Assembly: GCA_023261845.1 (NCBI GenBank)
Contig: JALNJZ010000006.1
Coordinates: 37,661-101,660 of the forward strand
DNA length: 64,000 nt
Direction: 5' to 3'
Origin: Candidatus Terraquivivens tengchongensis
GTDB lineage: Archaea > Thermoproteota > Nitrososphaeria_A > Caldarchaeales > Wolframiiraptoraceae
The notes under the pieces: model-generated
What the model was told of the DNA's origin: nothing
The model's database searches: none
What the model saw: only the letters and a program-made list of their open reading frames with translations
Position numbers and translations under genes: made by a program
Part shown: positions 3,460 through 20,098 of the stretch, piece after piece
Layout: the number at the start of each line of letters is the position of its first letter
Position numbering within the stretch: the first letter of the stretch is position 1

Positions 3460-3942
3460 TTAATATTTGATGCTGATGTACAAAAGAACGACGAGTGCCG
3501 CAAATGTGAATAGGTCGGGCAATAATGCAAACGGTCCCAGACCGAACGGCCTAAACCCGCAAGCCCACATTATCAAAGGGTTAGAGGTAAGGGCGTATAG
3601 GAACAAGATTACCGAAAATATTATCAGCCCGACAGTAAACTCAGACCTAGTTTTTCTGTATATGTCAACGTACACTATCAGCAAGAAGATTAAAAGAGCT
3701 ATGTTGACAGTTGAGACAACAGTCTTCGCTATGTAGAAAAACTCTATGTCTCCTGGGATGACGTACAGATGAAATCTAGGACGCCATGCAAGCTGGAAAT
3801 ACCAAAGCGTAGATGCCATCCACATAATAATCAACATTACAGCTATCACAAGAATTGGCAGAAGTATGAATAATAACCAAGCCGTAGATCTTTGGCTCAT
3901 TTTATCATTCATTTGCATCACCCCCTTTTCTACTTTTTCCAA
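3460..3942 (-). CDS. Small multi-pass membrane protein coupled to an ArsR regulator
   Basis: About four hydrophobic segments and a YRKTRSEFT.GL motif. Overlaps or adjoins the upstream HTH gene; the true start may be 3915 or 3912. Confidence 0.7.
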   Translation of the reverse strand: MEKVEKGVMQMNDKMSQRSTAWLLFILLPILVIAVMLIIMWMASTLWYFQLAWRPRFHLYVIPGDIEFFYIAKTVVSTVNIALLIFLLIVYVDIYRKTRSEFTVGLIIFSVILFLYALTSNPLIMWACGFRPFGLGPFALLPDLFTFAALVVLLYISIKY

Positions 3943-4232
3943 ATTTTCCTCACAATCTCTTCAAACAAGGCATAATTCTCCTCCATAATAGGGGATAAAA
4001 AATACGTAGTACCATAACCTTCTCCCGTAGACACTACCAAGTTGTTCCTTTCGAGGACCTCAAGGTGGTGCCTTATCGTTCTGTAGTCCATTTTGAGCCT
4101 ATTCGCCAGCTGGTTCGCATTCTGCGGAGCTTCTTTTAATGTCATGAGTATCTTCGCTCTCGTCAATCCGCCTCTCGTGCCTGCAATCAACCAGCCGAGC
4201 AAATACTTCAGAGGGTGTGCTTCACCTGACAT
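3930..4232 (-). CDS. ArsR-type winged-HTH transcriptional regulator
   Basis: GTRGGxTR...PQNANQLA...YRTIRHHL..L...YGxxYF pattern of the archaeal ArsR/HTH_20 subfamily. Confidence 0.85.
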   Translation of the reverse strand: MSGEAHPLKYLLGWLIAGTRGGLTRAKILMTLKEAPQNANQLANRLKMDYRTIRHHLEVLERNNLVVSTGEGYGTTYFLSPIMEENYALFEEIVRKIWKK

Positions 4233-6753: not shown

Positions 6754-7251
6754 TTAAGGCAATATCGTACGATTTTCGTAATTGCTGGCATTATTCTGAT
6801 CCGTTATAGAGAATTTTTTAGTTCTTTCCCATGGTTCAATTCCACCGTCTACCACTCTAAATACAGGATTAGCCTCCAATTCGTCGGTCGATAAATTTTT
6901 CAACTCACCAAATTTTTTCCTATCTCTCTTCTTAAGCTTAATCAGCAAGTGCATAAACTCGAACTCAAGTTGCCCTCTAGTGACAGTTATCTCTCCTAAC
7001 AAGATTATGGGCCTTATCTTTGACAGGTCGAACTTGTAGTTTCTGCGACTTGCTTCAAGATAAACCTGATATAGATATGCGTTTATTAGCTCCACCGGGT
7101 TCTTATACATCTTAAATCTCTCAAGCTGAGGGTGATTTGCATAACCCCGAGTGCACCCCTCTAAAACCTTCTTCGCTAAGAGCCCCTCCCTCCAAAGTGC
7201 GACCAAACCTTTCACGTCCAAGTATTTTGGATGAATGGACCACAACCTCAT
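6754..7251 (-). CDS. Pyrimidine-dimer DNA glycosylase / T4 endonuclease V-like protein
   Basis: MRLWSIHPKYLD.KGLVALWRE.LLA...GY.NHPQL signature. Confidence 0.85.
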   Translation of the reverse strand: MRLWSIHPKYLDVKGLVALWREGLLAKKVLEGCTRGYANHPQLERFKMYKNPVELINAYLYQVYLEASRRNYKFDLSKIRPIILLGEITVTRGQLEFEFMHLLIKLKKRDRKKFGELKNLSTDELEANPVFRVVDGGIEPWERTKKFSITDQNNASNYENRTILP

Positions 7252-7337
7252 TCAAATCCACCGGCACAATCGCCCATGTTGACCTCCTTGATTCTGGTGC
7301 AACATAGCTCGCAAACGTTTTGCTTAGCCGTAATTTT

Positions 7338-8009
7338 CTATATAATTTTCATAGGACCTGTGAGGAGTAGCAAGGATACGAAACCGACAAGCGGGACCGT
7401 TATGTTGTCATCTATTAAACCAAACTCAAACCTCTCTACGATGCTTGCGAGGGTTGCAGATATGAGGCCTGCGAAGTTAAAAATAGCAAATGCCATTGGC
7501 GCACATACTGCGAACATAGCTAAATTTCCCCACCATGACTTGGTCCTCTTTCGGTAGAGCAAATTCCTTACGATTCCTGTCACACCATCTCCAAAACTCA
7601 TGAAGAGTATTGGGACTATGGCAATCCATATGTTATTGATTAAGAACCCGATCATAATTACTAACCCCCACATCAATATGAAGTGAACCTCGTACATATT
7701 CTCTTTAACTTGGTACCAGTAAAACAACCTATTTTGCTTATGTGGTAAATAGTTGCCGATTGCTAGAAAAATTACCATAACACCTATGGGTATGAAGCTT
7801 TTGTATAGAAAGGGAACGAGGATTGCAATCAGCCCGCCGGTCAACATATGTATGATCTTTCTGTTATAGTAGACGGCGACGTTATGTGTATATCCCCATG
7901 CGATGAATGCCTCGTAAGTTTTCTTGGTTAAGAAGAGGCTGACGAATAACACCCAGCCCACAAGCACAAAACTGATTGCGATCTCTTCGAGTGTTGGTAT
8001 GGGAAACAT
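7338..8009 (-). CDS. Dolichol/phytol kinase-like membrane protein
   Basis: RKIIH, GDG..G, KSWWG and DDN.TVP motifs with multiple TM segments. Confidence 0.8.
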   Translation of the reverse strand: MFPIPTLEEIAISFVLVGWVLFVSLFLTKKTYEAFIAWGYTHNVAVYYNRKIIHMLTGGLIAILVPFLYKSFIPIGVMVIFLAIGNYLPHKQNRLFYWYQVKENMYEVHFILMWGLVIMIGFLINNIWIAIVPILFMSFGDGVTGIVRNLLYRKRTKSWWGNLAMFAVCAPMAFAIFNFAGLISATLASIVERFEFGLIDDNITVPLVGFVSLLLLTGPMKII

Positions 8010-8139
8010 GAAGCTTAATGCTAATTTTAAAGATATATAATTTTCAAGGTCGCTCTAATCTATTCAGAAGCAGAATGCATCCTGAAGGAAACGCGAACTT
8101 CCGTCTAAAAGTGGGAGATTGTTAAACCTTTTTTAAGAT

Positions 8140-8445
8140 TTACCTATGTGTTGTCGCTTTTTTAATTGCCTCTATAGCCTGATCAACCGTTAACATAGGA
8201 ACTACTTCAAAGTGAGCGTAGGGCATCCACGTAAGCAAGCGGGTGAAGAGTTCCGCTTCGTTTGCTGCTTCGCTAATTGTGTATCCGAAATCTCCACCTG
8301 CAGCCATTCCCCAGTCCTTCGTTACTCCAGCGTTCAAACTTGCTTTAACCATATCAAGCATTGAAAGCCAGACTTTAGCCCTTTGTTCAGCGTCAACTGG
8401 CACCTTAGTCGGCTCCAGCCACCATTTCACATAAAATTTGGTCAC
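8140..8445 (-). CDS. DUF3303-like small protein
   Basis: KF.V.W ... DWG....G..GY.I.E ... W.PY..FEV.P pattern. GGAGGTG SD upstream. Confidence 0.6.
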   Translation of the reverse strand: MTKFYVKWWLEPTKVPVDAEQRAKVWLSMLDMVKASLNAGVTKDWGMAAGGDFGYTISEAANEAELFTRLLTWMPYAHFEVVPMLTVDQAIEAIKKATTHR

Positions 8446-8597
8446 TTTATTTCACCTCCTTTTTTGTGGACTCCACTAACGAGTAAAGAAAACTTTCTTA
8501 GCGTTCGCTTTACAAGCCAGCAGAGCTTGTTTATTTGTAGAGGGCATCTTAGATAAACCTTGCTGTTGGTCCTGAAATTCAGTAATACAGCCCAAGA

Positions 8598-8613
8598 TGC
8601 GGGGGTGGGATTT
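8598..8613 (-). repeat. Distal att site: duplicate of the tRNA-Leu 3' end
   Basis: TGCGGGGGTGGGATTT here versus TGCGGGGGGTGGGATTT at 19997-20013 (one G fewer). The match stops in the T-loop. Confidence 0.8.
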
Positions 8614-8619
8614 CAGCAT

Positions 8620-8637
8620 TAATTTACCGGTAAATTA
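8620..8637. promoter_or_regulatory. 18-bp perfect palindrome TAATTTACCGGTAAATTA just inside the att site
   Basis: Read directly. 16/18 identical to 19978-19995 at the other end of the island. Confidence 0.7.
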
Positions 8638-8810
8638 TCTCTTATCTTCTTTGTCACCGTTTTTGGCGCTATCTCGATAAAATAACTTTTTCGGTAAAAC
8701 ATGCTCATAAAAGGTTACTATCCAAACGCTGAACTTATAGTTTTATGTTAACCTTCTAGGTTTTGTCGGCTGTGGCCTGCATGCAAATTGATTATCTGGC
8801 GATCTAGATT

Positions 8811-9221
8811 TTGAAAAAATTTTTTAAAGATTTTGATGGTTTGTTTTTTAGGGTTGCTCGCAGGTATTTGGGTGGTGTTAGGGACGTGGATGTGGTTGTT
8901 ATGGTTGATGATTTGACGCTTGTTGATGGAGATTCGCCTCTAGCCTATAAAGCGCCTGAGGGTAGCGAGTGGGGTAAACAGAAATTTTCCAGTGAGGTTT
9001 TGGAGAGGGCTAGGGCTGTTAATGAGAGGTTTTTGGAGAAGAAGCTTAGGAATGGGCGGTATGGTGAGGTTTATTTGGCTATGGGGAAACAGTATGCCGC
9101 GGCCCTGCCAGACTTGGCAAAATACGGTGTGAAAGTGGTTTTTCCAACTAGCGGCGGACCCGGACCAAAAGCACAAGCACTAAAACAATGGATTTTGAGG
9201 GAAGAATCTAATGAGTTTTGA
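8811..9221 (+). CDS. DUF6884/YaaA-like small protein, first gene of the defence operon
   Basis: F.G.FFR..RRY...DV.V......LV..D..L.Y ... Y.EVYLAMGK.Y pattern recalled from DUF6884-like proteins. Overlaps the methyltransferase start by 11 nt. Confidence 0.5.
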   Translation: MKKFFKDFDGLFFRVARRYLGGVRDVDVVVMVDDLTLVDGDSPLAYKAPEGSEWGKQKFSSEVLERARAVNERFLEKKLRNGRYGEVYLAMGKQYAAALPDLAKYGVKVVFPTSGGPGPKAQALKQWILREESNEF

Positions 9222-12180
9222 GAGGTTTGTAGAAGAGAAGTTGCCATTAACTCTTTTGAATAAGCTTAGTGCTAAAGAGTCGGGTTTTATTCGGATTCCA
9301 AAAATTCATAATATCCATACGTGGTTTGCTAGGAGGCCAGCTGGCGCTGCTCGTGCATTGACTTTAGCGGCTGTATTGCCGAAACATGTTGAGGAGAATA
9401 TTTACAATAAGATTTCGTCTCTGGTAGATGCTGAAAGATTAGATAAAGTAATTTATATTGTTAACCCAGACAGGGATACTATTAATAGTAAATTGAAAAG
9501 TTTCATCGGTAAAAGCGCAAAGGATGTTGTTGTTTGTGATCCTATGGCTGGTGGTGGCAGTATTCCTCTTGAGGCTTTGAGGCTTGGTTTTAGGACTATT
9601 GCGGTTGAGTATAATCCTGTTGCCTATCTGGTTTTGAGGGCTTCTGTGGAGTTTCCAGCCAAATATGCTGATTCGGGGCTTTTTGAAGAAACATTGAAGG
9701 CTTCTAAAGAGTTTGTTAGTAGGGCTAGAGAAGAGCTTGGCAAGTATTATGGTGAGGATGCTGAGAACTACATTTTTGCTCGTGGTGTGAGGTGTCCATT
9801 CTGTGGCGGGCTTATTCCAATTCAGGGGATTGAACCGGCGATAACTAAGGCGCCGAGGTTCAAGAAAAGGTTCTTGAAAATAACTTATGACAAGGAGAAG
9901 AAGACTTTCTCTGCTGAAACAACAGATAAAGCCATAGCATCTGGAACCATTGCTAAACGTGGAAACAATATTAAATGTCCTTACGATGGCTGTGGAAAAT
10001 GGTTCCAACTACGTGGGCAAGCGAAAGGAGAAACAACAGCCTTTGACCAATGGTTTTACGAACATGCAAAAATGATGGAAAGCATCGTTGAGGGTTTCGC
10101 TCCAATTACTGGCGAGCTTGAAGAGAAAATGCTTAACCTACACATTTCACTGGTAAAGCAGGTTGGCAACAGTTTTCAAGCAATATGGGACGAAAGAATA
10201 GAAAAAGGAAAGTTTGTGGATGCTTTGCATGCTCTTAGCAATGAGCTTTTAGAACTTCAAAACTACATCCCTCTGGACGAGATTTCGGCGGATAACGTTT
10301 GGGCTAGCACTGCGGTAAGCAAGGGATTGACGAAGTGGTATATGCTCTACAACCCAAGACAACTACTGGCCATAGCGAAACTATCAAAAATTGTGGCTGA
10401 AACCGCCGAGAAACTAACTTCAAAAGATGGAGAGTTTGGAGCAGCAGTAGCCACATACATTGCATTGGCGTTAGACAAGATAATAGACTACAACACTATA
10501 GCCACCCATTGGCAAGGAACAGGCTTTAAAACTGGTATTGCACACACTTTGCGGGGTGAGAGCACCCTTGACTTCAGAAAAGAATACTGCGAAATAAAAC
10601 GTGTAGACGAAGCATTGATGTGGACTTTGGAACCTGATGTCGCTGAATCAGACGTTCTAACAAAAACAACTGGTGGGGTTCTCCCAGTATTAAAATTCCT
10701 CTGCGATGAGTTTAGAAGCGCAGATGCTAAAGAAAAGGTAAACGTCTATTTGGGTGATGCCACTCAGCTTTCTTCCATTTTAGGCATAAAATCTATTGAC
10801 CTTATTAATGTTGATCCACCCTACTTCGAGCAGGTAATATATAGCGACAGAAGCGAGTTCTTCTGGGTTATACTCCGCAGATCCCTAGCTCCAGCCCTAG
10901 AACTCTTATTCAAACCAAACCTCAAACTCTCCAATTGGACATGGACAAGCCCCACAGTGCCAAGAGAAAGAGAAGTTGTAACCTACGACAAAGAAGACAC
11001 GCAGGGAAGATTCCGCAAATTCTTCACCGACTTCATAACAGAAACCTCAAAAGTCCTAAAAGACGACGGAGTCCTAACCCTCTGGTTCACGCATCCCACA
11101 GCACTAGCATGGCGGGTTGTCAGCGAATCCCTATACCAAAACGGCTACGTAGTCCCAAAAGTCTGGCCCCTACAAACAGAAATGAAAACCCGCTACAAAA
11201 AACACGTAAACATAGTAGCTCAAGAAATGAGCCTAGTAATAGTAGGCCGCAAATACCCACGCCAAAAACTACTGGAAGTGTCGCCCCAAGACGTTAAGGG
11301 AAGCCTTATGGAAAACCCCCTATTCACAAAGACAGTTGAAGAAACAGTAGAAGACACAAGAAAAATAATCATGGAAGCAAACGCCTCCCCAGCCGACACA
11401 GCCGCCCTAATGTTCGGAACAGCCCTCAGCGTAGCCTCCCGCTTCGAACTACCAATAGGCGCAACCTTCACAGACCTATACGACACAGCCATAACCGCCG
11501 TAATATCAAGATACACAGAACCCCTAATCTACAAGGTGCTAACCCAAATAGGACCCCAAAAACTAGACGAAAATACAGCCCAAAAAATAGCCAAAAATAT
11601 AGCCCAAGCCATGCTATGGGACCCAGCAACCCGCTCATACCTGACGTTATGGCTAATATCCCGCGTAGACCTCGCCACAGCAAAAATACGCCAAGAACCC
11701 TTAGGCTTGCATTTTGACCTCGTCCAAACAGTAGGCAAACTATGCGGCTTCGGCATAGAAAACCTAAAACACTACAGCCTCATAACAGAAAAAACCATAA
11801 ACAAAACAGGAAAAGCCTACTACCCCCAATTCCTAGAAATGCTAACCCTACCAGGCGGACAAACCTACCCAGACAGACTAATGCAGGTAGCCCCAGGATT
11901 GGCGACAATCCTAGCCCGCATGGCCATGACAGAAAGCGGAGACCCAGCAGCCAGAGCAAAAACCATAAAGGCGAAAATGAGCATGCACAGCGACAGAGAA
12001 CTCTCAAGCTGCGCCGCCCTAGCCACAATCCTACTAGAAACCGCACGCGACCAAGACTTAGGCTATAGAATAACAGACAAAACAAAAATAACAGGATACT
12101 TCCCAGGCATGGACGAAAGCGAAATAGCAAAACTCGTAAGAGAATTAGCTATAAAAACCCTAACACACTTAGTCTTTTAA
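9211..12180 (+). CDS. DUF1156 adenine-specific DNA methyltransferase with Zn-ribbon insertion
   Basis: IHTWFARRP (DUF1156 signature), DPMAGGGSIPLEA (motif I), CPFC...CPYDGC and DPPY (motif IV). Confidence 0.9.
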   Translation: MSFERFVEEKLPLTLLNKLSAKESGFIRIPKIHNIHTWFARRPAGAARALTLAAVLPKHVEENIYNKISSLVDAERLDKVIYIVNPDRDTINSKLKSFIGKSAKDVVVCDPMAGGGSIPLEALRLGFRTIAVEYNPVAYLVLRASVEFPAKYADSGLFEETLKASKEFVSRAREELGKYYGEDAENYIFARGVRCPFCGGLIPIQGIEPAITKAPRFKKRFLKITYDKEKKTFSAETTDKAIASGTIAKRGNNIKCPYDGCGKWFQLRGQAKGETTAFDQWFYEHAKMMESIVEGFAPITGELEEKMLNLHISLVKQVGNSFQAIWDERIEKGKFVDALHALSNELLELQNYIPLDEISADNVWASTAVSKGLTKWYMLYNPRQLLAIAKLSKIVAETAEKLTSKDGEFGAAVATYIALALDKIIDYNTIATHWQGTGFKTGIAHTLRGESTLDFRKEYCEIKRVDEALMWTLEPDVAESDVLTKTTGGVLPVLKFLCDEFRSADAKEKVNVYLGDATQLSSILGIKSIDLINVDPPYFEQVIYSDRSEFFWVILRRSLAPALELLFKPNLKLSNWTWTSPTVPREREVVTYDKEDTQGRFRKFFTDFITETSKVLKDDGVLTLWFTHPTALAWRVVSESLYQNGYVVPKVWPLQTEMKTRYKKHVNIVAQEMSLVIVGRKYPRQKLLEVSPQDVKGSLMENPLFTKTVEETVEDTRKIIMEANASPADTAALMFGTALSVASRFELPIGATFTDLYDTAITAVISRYTEPLIYKVLTQIGPQKLDENTAQKIAKNIAQAMLWDPATRSYLTLWLISRVDLATAKIRQEPLGLHFDLVQTVGKLCGFGIENLKHYSLITEKTINKTGKAYYPQFLEMLTLPGGQTYPDRLMQVAPGLATILARMAMTESGDPAARAKTIKAKMSMHSDRELSSCAALATILLETARDQDLGYRITDKTKITGYFPGMDESEIAKLVRELAIKTLTHLVF

Positions 12181-12199
12181 ATAGAAAGAGGCAGTAGCC

Positions 12200-15100
12200 T
12201 TGAAAACCATAGGCCAAATTTTCCAACTGAAAGAATCCCTTCTAGAAATAAAGTCAGAACTAACACCAAGCTTCGACGAAGTAATAAGAAGCTACCTAGG
12301 CCAACATGTAAAAACAAAATTCAAAGACCCCGCCTACACAACAGAAATCACATACCCTACACCTCCACTCCAAACCTTCATCAAAAGAATCCTTGAAGGC
12401 CTAACAATACCAACAGTTCAAGGCACATACCTAATAAGAGGATTCGGCTTCGGAAAAACCCACGCCATAATACTCCTCTGGCACATGCTAAACTCAAAAG
12501 AAGGAGCAAACTCCCAACTAGCCAAACAATTCGGCCTAAAAGAAAACATAGCCCAAGAAACCCTAGCCCTAGGAATAGACTTCAGCAAAGAACAACCCTT
12601 CCCCCACCTATTCAACCAGCTAGAAGCCATAGCAAAAAGACAACCAGAACAATGGCAAATAAAAGACCCAAGGCTTTCCCAAGCCATAATAGAAGTAACC
12701 AGAGAAATAAGCAGAACCAAAGCCCTAGCCCTACCCTCAGAAGAACTCGCAAACCTAATAATCAAAATACTAGAAAAATATAGGGAAGCGAAAGCTAATC
12801 CGAGGCTTCTACTCCTAATAGATGAACTTGGAATAGGAATAATCAGCAGACTTACAAGCTACATAGAAACCCAAAACGAGGAAAAATACGGCGAAATCGA
12901 ATACATAACCAACTTCATAGAACAACTCTACACAAAACTAAGCGGAAAAGGCATACCAGCCTACATCATAGTCGCCCTCGCAGAACAAGACATCAGAGAA
13001 ATAGACCACATATACCTCCAACAAGCAGACAAACCCATAATCCAAACAAAAATAGACGGCCTAAGAAAACGCCTCAACATCCTAAAAGAACGACTAAGCA
13101 GAGCAGTCGGGGGCCTAGGCGAAGAAGCTGCACTATCCTATGACCCAGAACACGCCATAAACATAGCAAAACACAGAGTCTTCAAAAAAATCGAAGAGGA
13201 AAAAGACATAGAAAAAACCCTAATAGCATACCTAACTCTACAAGCCCAACAATACAACCTCCAAGAAACCTTCGAAACCTACAAAGAACAAATCAAAAAC
13301 TACTATCCGCTTTCCCCAAGCATGATTTGGCTGTTCCGGAAAATCCTAAACCCCTACGACGCTCCTGGAACAGAATACGTAAGAACAACCCTAAACATAC
13401 TCGCAGAAGCCGCCGAAAACGCCCTAACATACGAGCCCCACAAGTCGCTAACCGTAAGCGCAAAACACCTCTCCATAGGACGGGCAGGCGTAATCGACCT
13501 CATGGGAGACTTCGAAGCAGAATGGGCCAGCACAGCCTCAGACATAGAACACGCCATAAAATCAGCAAATCCAGAAATACAAAAAGCCGTAGACATAGTC
13601 GCCAAACAAATACTTGCAAAAGGCACAACAGCCAACGTTACAGCCCTCATAGAAGTAAGAGACATAAAAGAAATCAAAAGATACGCCGTTTCACCAGAAG
13701 AAATGCAAATAGACATACTAACCACGCTACCCTCAGAAGAAGCAACCAAAACCATAACACAACTCCAAGAGGCCATAGAATACCTAAAAACACAAAGCGC
13801 AAGAATCGAAGAAAAAGAACATGAAAAACAAAAATTCTATCTGCCATCCCCAATGAGAACAATCTACGACAAACTTGCAGCCTTTGTAGCAGAACACAAA
13901 AGGATACTTGAAGAACCAACCCAATTACCAGGATACCTACAACAAGCAAACCTGCCTAGCCTCCTATACAGCCCAAAAGCAGCAATACCATCAAGAGAAA
14001 AAGAAGTCACAATACTTCTAAAGGAATACAACACTGTCACAAATGCTGAAGAACTCATAAACAGTGTGGACGTAAGAGATGCTCAAAACGAAGGAAACCT
14101 CTCCATAATAGTTGTCCCACCATGGGACGCCTTTCTCTTCAACGAACTCTACCAAAGAAAAACAGACTACCATACCCTCACAAACACAATAGCCCAAAAA
14201 CTCCAAAGCATAAATCTGGCAGGAAAAATCAGCCACCCCTTACACCTATTAGTCCTCATACCAAACATAAACCAAGACAAACTGACACGACTAATAGACG
14301 ACGTAATATCATACGCAGCCGTAAAAGACTTCATCAAACACCTCGAAAACAAAGAAAAAATCCTAGAAGAAAAAATGTATGACTACGAAAGAACCGTCAA
14401 AAAGAGACTCACACTAAGGCTAACAGAGTTCTTAGAAGAACAACGCAAAAAACTCGAGATAAGCCTTAAAAGCTCCATAGAACGACAAGTAAGAGACGCC
14501 AGATCATCCGCCCAAAAAGAACTCATAAAACTAACACGAAAAATAGCCACAAGTGCAATAGAACTCTACGAAGACGTAATCTATTACAGCCTACAATCCC
14601 AAAACTTCACAGCTCAAAGCCTAATCAAACTCTTCGGTGAACTATCCGGAGAAGCCTCAAAACTAGAACAAAGCGGAAAATCCTCCCTGTCAGAATACTC
14701 TCTAATCGTAAACATGTTCTTCAGAAGAGTAACAGAATCCACAGGATTCTCATGGGAGCCAGACACCATAGCAGAAGCCATATACAAACACTACAAGGCA
14801 GAAATTGAAAGTGGAGTAATCCGAAAACAAGACAGGATAAACGAAATAGTTGAAAACTCACTTCTCGGCACATACGAAGTAAAACCACTAAGCTCTAAAG
14901 TAGTTCAAGAAGCCATCCAAAAACTAAACGGCAAAACAATAGAAGCTGAAAACAAAAAAGTAACATTAAAAGTCGACGAAAAAACCAACCGGATAATCTT
15001 TAAAATAGAGGAAATAAAGCCGCCAGAAATAATAACAGAAGAAAAACCCACCGAAATACCACCAGAAGAAATACCCGTTCCAACAGAAGACCGCCCCGCA

Positions 15101-15463
15101 ATTGCTGAAAAAACCCTTGGAGAAGTCATAATCGAAGTAGACCAAAACTTCAATTATGAAGATTTCAAACAAAAATTAGACTCACTTTATCAAACCTATG
15201 GAACACTAATAAGCTCCATAAAAATCGGGACAAGCGGAAACTTCATCAGAGTAACTTTTGACTTCCTAGGTTCAAAACACTCAACCACCACAATTATTAG
15301 CGCAGCAAGATTCCTCAGACAAATCTCAAACATGTATAAGGCCACCCCGCAACTTGAAATCAAGTTCACAAGCCCACTTCCAGAAGAGAAGCTCCAAGAA
15401 ATACTCGGCTCATTCTTCACTAAAAAAGTGAGAAGAAGCTGGGATCGACTTCTACCGAGTTAA
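12200..15463 (+). CDS. DUF499/BrxC(PglY)-like AAA+ ATPase
   Basis: Walker A GFGFGKTH, Walker B LLLIDEL, YYPLSP (cf. YPFHP) and R(TT)L arginine segment. Long C-terminal region with a Pro/Glu linker. Confidence 0.75.
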   Translation: MKTIGQIFQLKESLLEIKSELTPSFDEVIRSYLGQHVKTKFKDPAYTTEITYPTPPLQTFIKRILEGLTIPTVQGTYLIRGFGFGKTHAIILLWHMLNSKEGANSQLAKQFGLKENIAQETLALGIDFSKEQPFPHLFNQLEAIAKRQPEQWQIKDPRLSQAIIEVTREISRTKALALPSEELANLIIKILEKYREAKANPRLLLLIDELGIGIISRLTSYIETQNEEKYGEIEYITNFIEQLYTKLSGKGIPAYIIVALAEQDIREIDHIYLQQADKPIIQTKIDGLRKRLNILKERLSRAVGGLGEEAALSYDPEHAINIAKHRVFKKIEEEKDIEKTLIAYLTLQAQQYNLQETFETYKEQIKNYYPLSPSMIWLFRKILNPYDAPGTEYVRTTLNILAEAAENALTYEPHKSLTVSAKHLSIGRAGVIDLMGDFEAEWASTASDIEHAIKSANPEIQKAVDIVAKQILAKGTTANVTALIEVRDIKEIKRYAVSPEEMQIDILTTLPSEEATKTITQLQEAIEYLKTQSARIEEKEHEKQKFYLPSPMRTIYDKLAAFVAEHKRILEEPTQLPGYLQQANLPSLLYSPKAAIPSREKEVTILLKEYNTVTNAEELINSVDVRDAQNEGNLSIIVVPPWDAFLFNELYQRKTDYHTLTNTIAQKLQSINLAGKISHPLHLLVLIPNINQDKLTRLIDDVISYAAVKDFIKHLENKEKILEEKMYDYERTVKKRLTLRLTEFLEEQRKKLEISLKSSIERQVRDARSSAQKELIKLTRKIATSAIELYEDVIYYSLQSQNFTAQSLIKLFGELSGEASKLEQSGKSSLSEYSLIVNMFFRRVTESTGFSWEPDTIAEAIYKHYKAEIESGVIRKQDRINEIVENSLLGTYEVKPLSSKVVQEAIQKLNGKTIEAENKKVTLKVDEKTNRIIFKIEEIKPPEIITEEKPTEIPPEEIPVPTEDRPAIAEKTLGEVIIEVDQNFNYEDFKQKLDSLYQTYGTLISSIKIGTSGNFIRVTFDFLGSKHSTTTIISAARFLRQISNMYKATPQLEIKFTSPLPEEKLQEILGSFFTKKVRRSWDRLLPS

Positions 15464-15475
15464 AAGGGAAGATCC

Positions 15476-16891
15476 TTGACAGAATTAGAAGAAAAAATCC
15501 AAAAAACATTCGGAGAAGTAGCCGTCAACAAAGGATTAGCCCTACGCCACGAAGTTGCAAGACTACCACGCTTCATATCCGAATACCTAATATCCAAATA
15601 CTGCGCCGCATACCCAGACTGCGAAACAGCCTTCAGCAAACTCGCCGAAGTAGTAGCAGAAAACTTCCCAGAACCCAAAGACAAAGACCGAGTATTCTAC
15701 AAGCTAAAACGTCTAGGCATAGTCCAATTAATGGACGAGTTCAAAGTAAGCATTGACCTAAAAAGAAACCTATACCTCTTACACATACCATGCCTACAAA
15801 TTTACGACGCACTGGCTGACGAAGGAATAGTCAGAAAATTTGAAAGAACACTATCCGGAATGTGGGGCCTAGGAACACTAGAATATCGTCCAGACTTACC
15901 CGAAAACATGGACGAAACCCTCTCACCAATCCTGCTAATAGACATAGAACCCTTCCAAGTCTATAACATTGATGTTAAGGGCTTTATCGAGAACCGCCAA
16001 AAATTCACATTGGACGAGTGGATAGATCTAATAATAACAACAATTGGGCTAAACCCCAACGCCTATTCTCCCAGACAGAAACTTTTGCAGCTAGCAAGAC
16101 TAATCCCCCTCATAGAAGCAAACGTCAATCTTATGGAGTTAGGACCAAGAGCCACAGGAAAAACATATCTTTACAGGAATCTATCCCACTACACTCGCAT
16201 ATACTCTGGAGGTGCAATAAGTCCAGCTCGACTCTTCTTTGACGCCAGATTACGATTGGTTGGAGATATAGCAACACATGACCTTGTTGCATTTGATGAA
16301 GTAAGCAGAATCAGATTCACAAACCCAGATGAAATGGCTGGAAAACTAAAAGATTTTATGGTTGATGGTTTCTTTGAACGTGGCACCCTAAAAAGAGCCC
16401 ATAGCGGTTGTTCTATAGTATTTCTCGGAAACATCGAAAAAGAAGAAGGCATACCAATTAAAGAAATAAGATACGCTCTGCCCGATATTATGCAAGATTC
16501 AGCGTTTCTGGACAGAATACACGGTCTCCTACCAGGCTGGGAAATGCCTAAAATAATGAAAAGTGAAGAACACTTGGCCCAAGGAATAGGGTTAGCGGCA
16601 GACTATTTCGCGGAGATAATTCATGAACTGAGAAAAGAAAGCTTTAGAGATGTAATAAACGCCCATGTAGAGTTTGGAAGCAGCTTCACAATAAGGGATG
16701 AAAATGCTGTCCGAAAATTAGCTTCAGGACTAGTTAAACTACTATTCCCAAATCGAGAATTCAATAACAATGAACTAAGACAAGTGCTCAATTTAGCAGT
16801 AGAAATGAGACAGTACATTGTAGACGAATTAAGTGAGATGTCACCCGTTGAATTTCCGCGCAAACGTCTAGAGGTAAAAGTGAAAGGATAA
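15476..16891 (+). CDS. brxL: BrxL-family AAA+ protein lacking the Lon protease domain
   Basis: PRFISEYL, ELGPRATGKT, FDEV and DSAFLDRIH..LPGWE.PKI motifs. Ends at 471 aa, before where a Lon domain would begin. Confidence 0.85.
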   Translation: MTELEEKIQKTFGEVAVNKGLALRHEVARLPRFISEYLISKYCAAYPDCETAFSKLAEVVAENFPEPKDKDRVFYKLKRLGIVQLMDEFKVSIDLKRNLYLLHIPCLQIYDALADEGIVRKFERTLSGMWGLGTLEYRPDLPENMDETLSPILLIDIEPFQVYNIDVKGFIENRQKFTLDEWIDLIITTIGLNPNAYSPRQKLLQLARLIPLIEANVNLMELGPRATGKTYLYRNLSHYTRIYSGGAISPARLFFDARLRLVGDIATHDLVAFDEVSRIRFTNPDEMAGKLKDFMVDGFFERGTLKRAHSGCSIVFLGNIEKEEGIPIKEIRYALPDIMQDSAFLDRIHGLLPGWEMPKIMKSEEHLAQGIGLAADYFAEIIHELRKESFRDVINAHVEFGSSFTIRDENAVRKLASGLVKLLFPNREFNNNELRQVLNLAVEMRQYIVDELSEMSPVEFPRKRLEVKVKG

Positions 16892-16893
16892 GA

Positions 16894-17712
16894 ATGATGG
16901 TTAATTTTACAAGCGAACTTGAAGCTATAGTTAAAACGGCATCAACCCTCAGCAACATGCCCGTAGAAGTATTCCACAGAATAATATTTTGCTCTTTCAT
17001 AAAAGCTGGTCTATCAATTTACGGAGCCCAAAAAGAACAAGAAATAGAATTAGAAAACCTAATTAAAACCGTTGCTGCGCCATACCGTGGACTAGTGAAT
17101 GGAAAATTATATTTGAGCGCCCTCCGCTTTGTAAAAACTTTTAACACTCTTTTAAAAAACAGCAAACGTGCAACTATACTTAAAGAGGCAGATCTTCAAT
17201 ATATCCTAAAATTTCTTGAAAATAAGATTGGTAAAGTTGACACCGTGTTTGTTCTCGACTGCGCATCAATCCCAGAAATCATAGCAATAGCAAGTAAATT
17301 TTCTGCTTCAAGGCGTAATACAACATTCTATGAAGAAGTTTTCATAAATCCCGTTGGCATTACGCGTTTTCTAACCGGGCAGCTTGAATCATTCAATCGC
17401 GAAAGCTACCTAGTGCAGTATGCAAAACTGTTAAAGGAAAGACTAAACGCCAACTTCTTTACAAAAATCTCAAAGGTAGATCTTATAACACATCAGCACG
17501 GTTACACGTTAGATGGCTTTCTAAAATCCATCGAAATGCAGAAATTATTTGACCACATAAGCCATTTCGCAAAACAAAGCTCCGTGCTTATCACGTCAGA
17601 CCACGGATATGACGTAGTCGCAGATGAGCATGGACTTTATATAACACATGGTTATAAAAAGGAATGCCCACTAAATTTCAGCAGAATAGCCCTATTCCTC
17701 GTAATCGACTGA
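16894..17712 (+). CDS. Minimal PglZ-like alkaline-phosphatase-superfamily protein
   Basis: FVLDC (cf. lviD.l), D...H and LITSDHGY PglZ metal-binding motifs. Only 272 aa. Confidence 0.7.
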   Translation: MMVNFTSELEAIVKTASTLSNMPVEVFHRIIFCSFIKAGLSIYGAQKEQEIELENLIKTVAAPYRGLVNGKLYLSALRFVKTFNTLLKNSKRATILKEADLQYILKFLENKIGKVDTVFVLDCASIPEIIAIASKFSASRRNTTFYEEVFINPVGITRFLTGQLESFNRESYLVQYAKLLKERLNANFFTKISKVDLITHQHGYTLDGFLKSIEMQKLFDHISHFAKQSSVLITSDHGYDVVADEHGLYITHGYKKECPLNFSRIALFLVID

Positions 17713-17723
17713 GGGGACCAAAA

Positions 17724-18236
17724 ATGGAACACAGCTACTACCTAATCTTCAAGACCAAAAAGAAAGGAAGCGAAATATCCTTCAACGTCGGGACCAAAGA
17801 AAAAACCACAACATTACTCAAATTCAGGGGACGCCGTACCGAAGAAATATTTAACAAAATTCTCAAGGCTCTAAGCAAAGTAGGATGCATAACACCCCTT
17901 CAAACGGGCAATCCTAGCGTATATTACGTAAGAGATGATGTAGGTCCAGTTTTAGGCACTTATCTCATTCTTATTCGGCGTGCACAAAAAATCGATTATT
18001 GGATAACCTTTTTAGATGAATTACTAACAGGTAAATATGCGAGACTCGGGGAAACATTCTCAACATTACTTGAGTCATCTATAGAATTGTCAAAAGCAAC
18101 AATTTCAAAAAGCCAAAGGAAAGAATACACACTTTCACCTGTTATCGTTTCCTCTTTTTCATCGGCACTTAAAGTACTGGTCAAAAGGTTAAAATCATAC
18201 GAAACTGAGCCCCCCGCTAAAACGTTTCATCATTAA
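17724..18236 (+). CDS. Hypothetical protein, last gene of the defence operon
   Basis: ATG 17724 after a GAGGGG SD, 11 nt after the PglZ stop. Basic 170-aa protein with no family recognised. Confidence 0.65.
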   Translation: MEHSYYLIFKTKKKGSEISFNVGTKEKTTTLLKFRGRRTEEIFNKILKALSKVGCITPLQTGNPSVYYVRDDVGPVLGTYLILIRRAQKIDYWITFLDELLTGKYARLGETFSTLLESSIELSKATISKSQRKEYTLSPVIVSSFSSALKVLVKRLKSYETEPPAKTFHH

Positions 18237-18363: not shown

Positions 18364-19420
18364 TTAAAAGTTGTAGTTTTTCGAGTGTTTTTGCTGGTTT
18401 AGGTTTGGAGAGAAGCCTAAATCTTGCTTGAAAATAAACTTGGATTTTTGGTTGTTTAAAAGAGGTGTTAAAATCCCCAATTTTGGTATACATGCCAAAT
18501 ATGTTTTTCTTAGTTCTTCTTTGTCTATGTGGTGGTATATGTCTATGGCTTCCCTGCGCCGGTCGCCTCTAAGCTCCTTCACGTATTCGCGGGGCATGTC
18601 GTTCCGTAAAAGCCAGGTTGTGAACCAGTGCCTGAAACAGTGGGGGCCGAAGTGGTCTTCTAGGCGGGGTGAGTTTGGGTTGTGGAAGCCAAGGCGCTTC
18701 GCGTATTTGACTATGGCTGTGTATAGGCCGTTTCTATCCAGCCTCCCAAGGCTTTGGTAACTTATGAAAAGCGCCTTTGTAGGCGGGTTCAGTTTCTCCC
18801 TAACCCTAAGCCACCTTTTAAGCGCGGCTGCGCATTCCTCATCAAAGAAAACCGTGCGGTTGCTTCTTTTAGGCGTGGGCTTAAGCGTAATGGAATACTC
18901 AGCCCAATTTATGTCCTCAACATCAAGCCTCAAAAGTTCGCCCCTTCTTATTCCAGTCTTCGCCAGTAGCACTGCTATGGCTTTGTCCCTTGGATCCAAA
19001 ATGGAGTTTACCAGTCGGCTCATCTCCTCAACGCTTAAAAGCCTCCGCTCAGGATCGTCATAGCCATCCTTATAGCGCTTAAGATACCGTTTTCTGAAGG
19101 GCAGAACAATGTTGCTGGTGATGTAGCCCTCAAAGGCCAAATAATCGTAAAAGGCTGAAAGCGCAGAAAAATAATTCTCAACAGTCTTATGCTTTGCGTT
19201 CATAAACCACGTGCTGGAGAAAGTCCCTAAGCACCTTAACATCCACGTCACTTATGCTGAAACCTCGGCTTTCAAGAAATTCCATAAATATCTTCAGGCT
19301 TGAAACGTATCTTCTTATGCTTTCCTCGGTCATGCCCCTAAGCCTACAGTCTCGGCTGAAACCCTCAACCAGAACCCATGAGTTTTGAAGCGTTTTCAAG
19401 CTTAACCCGTCCACCGCCAA
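18364..19420 (-). pseudogene. Tyrosine recombinase/integrase split by a frameshift near 19190
   Basis: The SAM-like N-terminal ORF (19187-19420) continues in another frame into the catalytic domain (TGIRRGEL, HCFRH, LRGD, IDIYHH). Confidence 0.8.
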
Positions 19421-19950
19421 CCCCTACCCTTATACTCAACCAGCCCATAGGCTTCAAGGGCTTGAAGCTGCCTGTCAACAGCCCTAACCAAATCAACATC
19501 TGACGGATCGATGTTTAGGGCTGCCAAGATTTCCTTCTGCGTGTAAGATCCGCCCTTCCTCAACAAATCGATAAGGTCCTTGTCAAACTTTCTAACGCCC
19601 TCGAAGGTTTCCTGGAGGAAGGGCTGAGCCCTGTAACGCTTAAGCTCATTATCCAAGTTCTCCGCCAACCTCTTCAAAAGCCTATTCTCCTCGCGTAGGC
19701 TCTTCAACTCCTCCTCGGCGCTGCGTAAACGCTTAACAAGCTCAGCACGGCTCAAGTAGCCTTCTTCACCCTCCTCACGCCGGATAGAATCCTCAACACG
19801 CTCAACAACAAACCTAGAAATCGACACGCCCGCCTTTTCCGCCCGACGCCGCCAATCCTCAACCATCTCAACAGACGGTAGATAAACATAAACCGCCCGA
19901 TCCTTAATTGTACACGTCTTACCCCTATTAGGCCTCGTCACACCCACCAA
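19402..19950 (-). CDS. RHH / coiled-coil / wHTH DNA-binding protein upstream of the integrase
   Basis: R.VYVYLPS.EM...W...A...GVSISRFV RHH-like pattern, heptad region and C-terminal wHTH. Start uncertain (19941-19974). Confidence 0.65.
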   Translation of the reverse strand: MVGVTRPNRGKTCTIKDRAVYVYLPSVEMVEDWRRRAEKAGVSISRFVVERVEDSIRREEGEEGYLSRAELVKRLRSAEEELKSLREENRLLKRLAENLDNELKRYRAQPFLQETFEGVRKFDKDLIDLLRKGGSYTQKEILAALNIDPSDVDLVRAVDRQLQALEAYGLVEYKGRGWRWTG

Positions 19951-19977
19951 CAAAAATAACACACTTACGAGCATTTA

Positions 19978-19995
19978 TAATTTACCAGCAAATTA
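19978..19995. promoter_or_regulatory. Imperfect palindrome TAATTTACCAGCAAATTA overlapping the TATA box of the RHH-integrase operon
   Basis: 16/18 match to 8620-8637. Minus-strand TTATAAAT at 19973-19980. Confidence 0.6.
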
Positions 19996-19996
19996 G

Positions 19997-20098
19997 TGCG
20001 GGGGGTGGGATTTGAACCCACGAACCCCTACGGGACAGGGTCTCCCATCATAAAGGAATCTGAGCCCTGCGCCGTTGACCAGGCTTGGCAACCCCCGC
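19997..20098 (-). tRNA. tRNA-Leu(CAG) with a 17-nt intron at 37/38 (20042-20058); island integration site
   Basis: GCGGGGG/CCCCCGC acceptor stem, CAGGG/CCCTG anticodon stem, long variable arm and GTTCAAATC T-loop. BHB central helix CTCA/TGGG. Confidence 0.92.

Follow-up and report, generated by a model that had tools for sequence, protein, structure and literature searches.

BREX-Related (BR) systems, centred on a DUF499 ATPase, were defined computationally by Rakesh & Krishnan (Nucleic Acids Res 2026, PMC12839542). In the main text of that paper, to which all statements on it below refer, Type-3 BR combines the DUF499 ATPase with an N6-methylase of the DUF1156 family, a nuclease-free Snf2 helicase of the BrxHII kind and a standalone active PglZ, and it 'retains all three core components', the BrxHII-like helicase included. 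The standalone PglZ is present in all 569 taxa (134 of them archaea) and an iSTAND (BrxB-like) gene in 82%. BrxL is given there as specific to types 1 and 4 of bacteriophage exclusion (BREX) systems, PglZ is proposed as the primary nuclease and summarised as a nicking nuclease that depends on metal and is inhibited by ATP, and BrxL and SF2 helicases are proposed to be functionally equivalent. In Type-1 BREX, according to PMC13326643, the core complex is made up of BrxB, BrxC and PglZ, and ATP tunes its assemblies. How BREX stops phages, and the role that BrxL plays in it, are still unsettled. The locus described here lies in a stretch of 64,000 nucleotides (the window) from the archaeon Candidatus Terraquivivens tengchongensis (contig JALNJZ010000006.1, positions 37,661 to 101,660), and comprises six genes, O1 to O6 (Table 1). 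We read it, with a probability of roughly 0.7, as a BR anti-virus/anti-plasmid operon with a Type-3 BR core, in which BrxL takes the place of the helicase and O1 is added, carried by an integrase-bearing element of about 11.4 kb inserted at the 3' end of a tRNA gene.

Comparison with described systems

The core of the operon, formed by the DUF1156 methylase (O2), the DUF499 ATPase (O3), the standalone PglZ (O5) and a small partner (O6), is that of the published Type-3 BR systems and is to that extent already described. Four of the features or gene positions of that type are found at the locus and one, the helicase, is absent. Shared are the DUF1156 N6-methylase with its nested zinc-finger insert, the DUF499-type ATPase with a BrxC-like N-terminal module and a C-terminal RNA recognition motif (RRM)-like domain, a standalone PglZ that is apparently active to judge from its residues, a small separate gene following it, the lack of a classical nuclease and the frequent occurrence in archaea. 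The differences concern three genes: a short BrxL lies between ATPase and PglZ here, whereas Type-3 BR has a Swi2/Snf2 (BrxHII-like) helicase; the operon here opens with an additional conserved gene, O1; and the small gene is of the iSTAND/BrxB kind there, whereas O6 gave hhalign probabilities of only 0.1–0.2 against BrxB.

What remains new with respect to the main text of PMC12839542 is therefore a monophyletic archaeal branch with BrxL in place of the Snf2 helicase and with O1 added. BrxL as part of a BR system is absent from the sections of that main text consulted and from the 12 passages on BrxL examined among its 18, and full-text searches of the literature yielded no other description of BrxL together with DUF1156/HmaB or with DUF499 and PglZ, nor of a standalone or Bathyarchaeia form of PglZ. 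The sequence-only reading of the window had proposed a BREX-related, methylation-type candidate defence operon, in agreement with the gene identities and the Type-3 BR core, and had held the system to be undescribed. That second claim fails for the core and stands for the exchange of helicase for BrxL and for O1; set against the defined BREX and BREX-related subtypes, the locus comes closest to Type-3 BR and departs from it in having BrxL for the helicase and in O1. On balance we lean, by a little, towards considering the BrxL-bearing six-gene operon a distinct, undescribed BR subtype of thermophilic archaea that arose once, when the Snf2 helicase was exchanged for a BREX-type BrxL with its linked O1, and that makes up a natural swap series together with helicase-type and motor-less sisters.

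Type-4 BREX (BrxP-BrxC-PglZ-BrxL) has in common with the locus a short BrxL without Lon or HKD domain (TIGR02688) and the combination of PglZ with a large AAA+ ATPase. It differs in its phosphorothioation by a PAPS-reductase, where the locus has the DUF1156 methylase, in its BrxC, where the locus has a DUF499-type ATPase, and in its large multidomain PglZ, in contrast to the standalone protein of 272 aa found here. With Type-1 BREX (BrxA-BrxB-BrxC-PglX-PglZ-BrxL) the operon shares the number of six genes and the presence of a methylase, a large ORC/Cdc6-like ATPase, PglZ, BrxL and two small proteins; unlike in that type, the PglX, BrxA (DUF1819), BrxB (DUF1788) and BrxC families went undetected, BrxL is devoid of the Lon-like domain and PglZ of the extra N- and C-terminal domains. 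Finally, the Hma or Type-1 BR system of PADLOC (HmaA helicase-nuclease, HmaB DUF1156 methylase, HmaC DUF499 ATPase) is related through O2, which matches HmaB (4e-40), and through the HmaC matches of 14 of 27 members of the O3 family; it differs in that the locus has no HmaA and carries PglZ, BrxL, O1 and O6 instead.

Searches of the open reading frames (ORFs) of the island with Pfam, PADLOC and NCBIfam returned no helicase, PglX, BrxA, BrxB or nuclease family, as had been anticipated from the sequence. PF08747, BrxC and NF033441 were likewise unmatched on these ORFs, and the only PglX-related signal was a weak, partial PglXI match on O2 (2e-06). The PAPS-reductase (BrxP) modification family matched none of the eight island ORFs, and HmaA was missing from them in both PADLOC and Pfam. 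Elsewhere in the same genome (99.4% complete) canonical PglZ, DUF499 and BrxC were not found.

Table 1. Genes of the operon and other features of the island (window coordinates)
Feature	Position	Strand	Basis
O1, unnamed protein of 126-136 aa, first gene of the BrxL-type operon	8811-9221	+	ORF; start may be TTG at 8841
O2, DUF1156 N6-adenine-type DNA methyltransferase	9211-12180	+	Pfam, PADLOC, motifs
O3, divergent DUF499/HmaC-type, BrxC-like AAA+ ATPase (profile and fold level)	12200-15463	+	hhalign, Foldseek, HmaC matches of homologues
O4, short BrxL of 471 aa: N-terminal DNA-binding region and MCM-type AAA+ ATPase, without Lon-like C-terminal domain	15476-16891	+	TIGR02688, PF13337, PF20442
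O5, standalone mini-PglZ of 272 aa (fold and active-site level): helical N-terminal bundle and alkaline-phosphatase/NPP-type core	16894-17712	+	model, Foldseek, invariant residues
O6, conserved partner of 170 aa, unnamed family; position of the small BrxB-like (iSTAND) gene of Type-3 BR	17724-18236	+	
Distal att-like copy of the tRNA 3' end (16/17 nt), left edge of the ~11.4-kb island	8597-8613		fuzzy search
XerA-like tyrosine recombinase/integrase	18364-19251	-	PF00589 8e-25; NF040815 1.4e-39, below cut-off
Island ORF of 190 aa adjoining the tRNA	19402-19974	-	weak helix-turn-helix (HTH)-like; sub-threshold HTH_5, HVO_A0114
Intron-containing type-II tRNA, integration target	19997-20098	-	Rfam RF00005, 42.5 bits

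Components of the operon

The six genes are co-oriented and separated by junctions of exactly -11, 19, 12, 2 and 11 nt, the values read from the sequence at the outset. The same reading had named O2 as a DUF1156 protein and O4 as a protease-less BrxL, and both names are confirmed by family matches above cut-off. For O2 these are the Pfam DUF1156 match (2.3e-07; 31.2 bits, cut-off 24), accompanied by PADLOC MTase_II (1.1e-41) and HmaB (4.1e-40), and its translation contains an S-adenosylmethionine-binding motif I at about residues 98–112, a DPPY motif at about residue 533 and one CxxC...CxxxxC zinc-finger insert. O4 is a member of the short BrxL family (TIGR02688, 1.1e-142; 475.9 bits, cut-off 329.3), with further Pfam matches to PF13337 (3.4e-114) and PF20442 (2.6e-23). 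Its residues 3–460 align with residues 8–463 of the 679-aa BrxL 8emc (7.3e-80), and since the alignment spans only that part of the longer protein, O4 is devoid of the Lon-like domain. The identity with 13 bacterial BrxL proteins is 31–37% over residues 1–460.

The names given from the sequence to O3 (DUF499) and O5 (mini-PglZ) hold at the level of profile alignment, fold and invariant residues, and not at that of hidden Markov model (HMM) matches to the window proteins themselves. O3 has 90 homologues in a large protein collection, one of which is named 'DUF499 domain-containing' in UniRef. An alignment of 27 members shows an invariant GFGFGKTH (Walker A) and an invariant D-E pair in LLLIDELG (Walker B). 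One of the 27 matches Pfam DUF499 (E 0.008), the HmaC matches mentioned above (best 5.6e-12) are to HmaC and not to BrxC, and NCBIfam returned nothing for the family. Compared by hhalign with 11 PF04465 proteins of the same phylum, all far above cut-off, O3 aligned through its N-terminal ATPase module, across 407 columns, with a probability of 98.9 (E 3.2e-17). Among solved structures, Foldseek ranks BrxC chains of Acinetobacter first (E 1e-5, prob 1.0) for the predicted structure of O3 (predicted local distance difference test, pLDDT, 85.6), followed by ORC/Cdc6 proteins. By sequence or profile O3 had no useful counterpart in PDB, and the BrxC model NF033441 was unmatched in the same genome and in the 301 genomes of the phylum that were searched. 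Profiles and the modelled fold place O3 among the DUF499/HmaC-type, BrxC-like ATPases as a divergent member, a classification made because of the hhalign result, the HmaC matches of its homologues, the fold and the absence of NF033441 matches.

O5 has 57 close homologues, mostly in metagenome-assembled genomes (MAGs) of Bathyarchaeia and Thermoproteota, and an exhaustive profile search of 1.84 billion proteins gave a family of 47 representatives (at 50% identity). Full-length members measure 252–312 aa, mostly 264–290, the 11 fragments among the 47 measure 69–234 aa, and the profile reached no protein of the length of large PglZ. Plasmid and phage collections contained no match to O5, and PDB gave none of use by sequence or profile. 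The model (pLDDT 85.5) was matched by Foldseek to PorX (E 2e-4, prob 1.0), whose effector domain is a PglZ domain, and to the BREX PglZ chain 9zn5_B (E 7e-3). Twelve residues are invariant in 41 members with identities down to 19%: D122, E128, N152, G155, T157, D196, H200, D236, H237, G238, Y239 and H252. The identity with the gene at the PglZ position of a helicase-type locus (L011, see below) is 26%. O5 is accordingly a mini-PglZ at the level of modelled fold and active site, and not a Pfam PglZ member by sequence.

The small genes O1 and O6 had been described from the sequence as uncharacterised and as bracketing the operon. Neither has a named family, but both are conserved members of it. 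O1 precedes the methylase gene in all 15 assessable BrxL-type metagenome loci and in three of the five genome loci with enough upstream DNA (present in L002, L003 and L007, absent from L005 and L008), and, being tied so strictly to the BrxL branch, it may serve a function connected with BrxL. An assignment of O1 to DUF6884 was considered on an Atlas lead of 0.88 (below the 0.9 line) and dropped, as neither Pfam on four members nor PHROGs supported it. By profile, L039 is the one architecture examined that has no O6-like gene directly behind its PglZ gene, and by tblastn O6 is present in 44 of 47 assessable metagenome loci, the three misses (L090–L092) being of the divergent L010 type and assessed by tblastn only. 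All 84 homologues of O6 are unnamed. Its profile found nothing among PDB sequences or PHROGs and no usable match in Atlas, and hhalign against the O3, DUF499, O5 and O1 profiles gave no match. DUF7680 was rejected for O6, with a Pfam E of 0.041 in only two of 11 members; DUF7680 proteins occur in two of 301 genomes, too few for a profile. In a Deltaproteobacteria MAG contig (L012 / L097, ~3480-3990) weak O5-like (E 1.5e-4) and O6-like (7.8e-10) matches lie next to each other, which hints that the pair of PglZ and partner exists in bacteria as well.

Gene order, sister architectures and phylogeny

A survey of gene order in archaeal genomes, as the sequence-only reading had suggested, found O2-O3-O4-O5-O6 conserved in seven of 11 genome loci (L002–L008), which come from MAGs of Bathyarchaeia, Sulfolobales, Thermoprotei, Desulfurococcaceae and Acidilobaceae. 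An O5 match was obtained in 55 of 57 metagenome loci, 39 of which extend far enough upstream to be judged. BrxL stands directly upstream of O5 in 33 of these 39 as scored by script and in two more by eye (~35/39 in total), namely L089, with an overlapping BrxL match, and L050, where a partial BrxL match (7231-8642) is followed by a gap of 437 nt before O5 and the copy is possibly damaged. In the remaining four (L090, L091, L092 and L095) the ATPase gene lies upstream of O5, without BrxL. All five genes O2 to O6 are present in 22 metagenome loci, and NCBI locus tags place O3 and O5 two genes apart in four MAGs.

Two other forms share the core. In the Thermoproteaceae locus L011 an SF2 helicase gene stands in front, followed by the methylase, the ATPase, a 274-aa PglZ, a 154-aa O6-like gene and, behind, an EVE gene. 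L010, L036, L037 and L038 consist of methylase, ATPase, PglZ and O6-like gene, with neither helicase nor BrxL adjoining, and L039 is without the O6-like gene. EVE-domain genes flank L011 and L038. In L038 (3697-6723) the methylase is split into two ORFs of 729 and 276 aa, possibly a damaged copy.

A quick maximum-likelihood tree set 19 PglZ-linked ATPases beside 11 Pfam-DUF499 proteins; its 12 BrxL-type rows were hand-picked for spread from more than 30. All 12 BrxL-type ATPases fall into one clade inside the PglZ-linked group (Shimodaira-Hasegawa-like approximate likelihood ratio test, SH-aLRT, 99) with a single label change, so that the BrxL branch has one origin. The PglZ-linked group is split from the 11 Pfam-DUF499 proteins with SH-aLRT 100; the long branches of L039, L011 and L015 were flagged, and deep placements are unsure.

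A mobile island at a tRNA gene

The 3' end of the tRNA gene (19995-20013, + strand) is repeated at the left edge of the island, and a fuzzy search detected no third site on the + strand of the window. The repeat holds an indel and was missed by a general repeat finder. The same-genus genome G219 presents the empty site: there the tRNA lies about 63 nt from the counterpart of the gene that flanks the island on the left (window 7338-8009), compared with about 11.9 kb in the window. The O5 family is found in eight of 401 sampled genomes of the phylum, the present one included, and in none of six same-genus genomes. The operon is the cargo of a tRNA-integrated island, as the sequence-only reading had it, because of the att copy, the empty site in G219 and the patchy distribution of the O5 family; the integrase and the Rfam tRNA call agree with this. 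In metagenome contig L078 (1066-1603) the order O5-O6-integrase-HTH is kept with 67–89% identity, hence the same integrative element circulates elsewhere. That contig also carries a fragment 75% identical to the 190-aa ORF beside the tRNA.

Weighing of alternative explanations

Several observations weigh against our reading. The operon and all its relatives are known from sequence and predicted structure alone. The O3 protein of the window has no Pfam (even at E<=10), PADLOC or NCBIfam match, and O5 has no Pfam match at E<=10, PF08665 PglZ included, a family also absent genome-wide, so that both names are grounded in profile-profile comparison and fold. The best VIA Z score of O5 is 7.9, just under the caution line of 8, although it spans the whole model and is well above that of the next fold class (4.2). 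Judged by its spacing, the set D...T...DxxxH...DH...H formed in O5 by D122, T157, D196, H200, D236, H237 and H252 presumably corresponds to the metal-ligand and nucleophile pattern of the nucleotide pyrophosphatase/phosphodiesterase (NPP) and alkaline phosphatase enzymes. The NCBIfam match of O2 to DUF1156_antiphage (3.9e-29) reaches 101 bits and falls far short of the cut-off of 1000. O1 belongs to no Pfam, PADLOC, NCBIfam or PHROG family and no function could be assigned to it. For O6, the hhalign values above were obtained against nine BrxB proteins and show no similarity to BrxB in sequence, so that the analogy with BrxB/iSTAND is one of gene position. Lastly, the loci were seeded by two peptide patterns from close relatives and are biased towards these, their counts measuring conservation and not prevalence, and some metagenome loci duplicate genome loci (among them L042/L002, L087/L007 and L095/L011) and are not independent.

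It is unlikely that the locus is simply an already catalogued Type-3 BR locus, with BrxL-bearing archaeal loci already included by Rakesh & Krishnan in their 569 taxa or neighbourhood tables and nothing new to report. The core genes fit the published description, the catalogue comprises 134 archaeal taxa gathered by iterative searches anchored on DUF499 ATPases, and its neighbourhoods are given in Supplementary Data S1 of PMC12839542. However, the main text of that paper counts the BrxHII-like helicase as a core component and limits BrxL to BREX types 1 and 4, and full-text searches of the literature gave no other description of the BrxL form. A true BREX subtype, that is, a derivative of Type 4 or Type 1 that took up a DUF1156 methylase in place of its modification gene and kept only a trimmed PglZ, appears improbable. 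O4 is indeed a full member of the short-BrxL family that is typical of Type-4 BREX in the main text of PMC12839542, BrxC chains head the solved-structure matches of O3, and there are six genes, as in BREX; against this, O3 aligns to DUF499 profiles, its homologues match HmaC and not BrxC in PADLOC, NF033441 goes unmatched in the genome and across the phylum sample, and sister loci with the same core carry a Snf2-type helicase or no motor. The BrxC fold match, moreover, may only reflect that no DUF499 protein is among the solved-structure matches listed. We regard it as very improbable that the operon is no host immunity at all and serves the integrative element, either as an addiction-type modification module or in replication or maintenance through the MCM-like BrxL. 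That the operon is the sole cargo of a mobile island, that BrxL is MCM-related and that an extreme strand-biased composition (see below) hints at an unusual DNA metabolism would suit such a role, but most long loci have the operon without this integrase, which was matched in a single one of the 57 metagenome loci (L078), and all identifiable parts come from families known in defence systems. Systems of the restriction-modification kind commonly ride mobile elements, so the mobility of the island is no argument against defence.

Proposed mechanism and implications

For the operon read as a BR defence system with BrxL in the helicase position, a working scheme can be drawn by analogy with BREX. 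O2 would mark the host DNA as self at a non-palindromic site, probably as N6-methyladenine (m6A) in view of its DPPY motif, while O3 together with O6 and O5 may form an ATP-regulated sensing or scaffold complex resembling BrxC-BrxB-PglZ. Upon entry of unmethylated DNA, O5, as a putative metal-dependent phosphodiesterase, would nick it or hydrolyse nucleotides; in the alternative, it might act on nucleotides or cyclic nucleotides in place of nicking DNA. The O4 ring could load on DNA as a motor and block or unwind the replicating invader, a job that would fall to the Snf2 helicase in the sister systems. BrxL and the small PglZ are thus plausible candidates for the effector side, as had been put forward from the sequence, again by analogy. 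The motor-less relatives suggest that the motor is an add-on.

Close relatives that differ only in their motor (BrxL, Snf2 helicase or none) make the proposed equivalence of BrxL and BREX helicases directly testable. If the swap series is true, BrxL and the BrxHII helicase would be interchangeable, dispensable motors around an invariant core of methylase, ATPase, PglZ and partner. The branch extends the range of BrxL beyond BREX types 1 and 4. The compact core of small thermostable proteins (PglZ of 272 aa, BrxL of 471 aa, partner of 170 aa) offers a minimal PglZ for biochemistry and structure. Catalogues overlook such loci, as neither the ATPase nor the PglZ found here is recognised by PADLOC 2.0 or Pfam.

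Further features of the island and its flanks

The target tRNA was missed by ARAGORN in its default mode and, with introns allowed, its copy in the window was called Ser(CGA), while the orthologues in the same-genus genomes G219 and G034 were called Leu(CAG) with an intron of 17 nt. An intron of 17 nt in the canonical place would make the tRNA Leu-CAG, and the calls for the orthologues agree with such a placement. A near-palindromic TAATTTACC(G/A)G(T/C)AAATTA is located just inside both ends of the island (8620-8640 and 19975-19994), beside the att copies, and could be a candidate binding site for the recombinase. The DNA that the window has in excess of G219 consists of the att-bounded island and a stretch of 0.47 kb (8124-8596), which carries an ORF with a DUF3303 match (8140-8445, minus strand; Pfam 4.4e-09). 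This stretch, bordered on one side by the distal att copy and on the other by the DNA that in G219 runs on directly into the tRNA, may be the leftover of an older insertion.

The base composition of the operon is strongly biased between strands. From 10800 to 16000, which covers the 3' part of O2, all of O3 and the start of O4, the A+C content of the + strand is 0.62–0.72, compared with a window mean of 0.516 (standard deviation 0.058), and the third codon positions of O3 hold A 0.53, C 0.33, G 0.06 and T 0.07. The opposite tendency is seen in O1 and in the 5' part of O2, the third positions of O1 holding G 0.33, T 0.39 and C 0.09. The A+C bias is repeated in the O3 gene of L003 (Bathyarchaeales) and not in those of L005–L008, L010, L011, L036 and L038. 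Such a composition resembles a strand-specific signature that mutation or replication would have left on the element.

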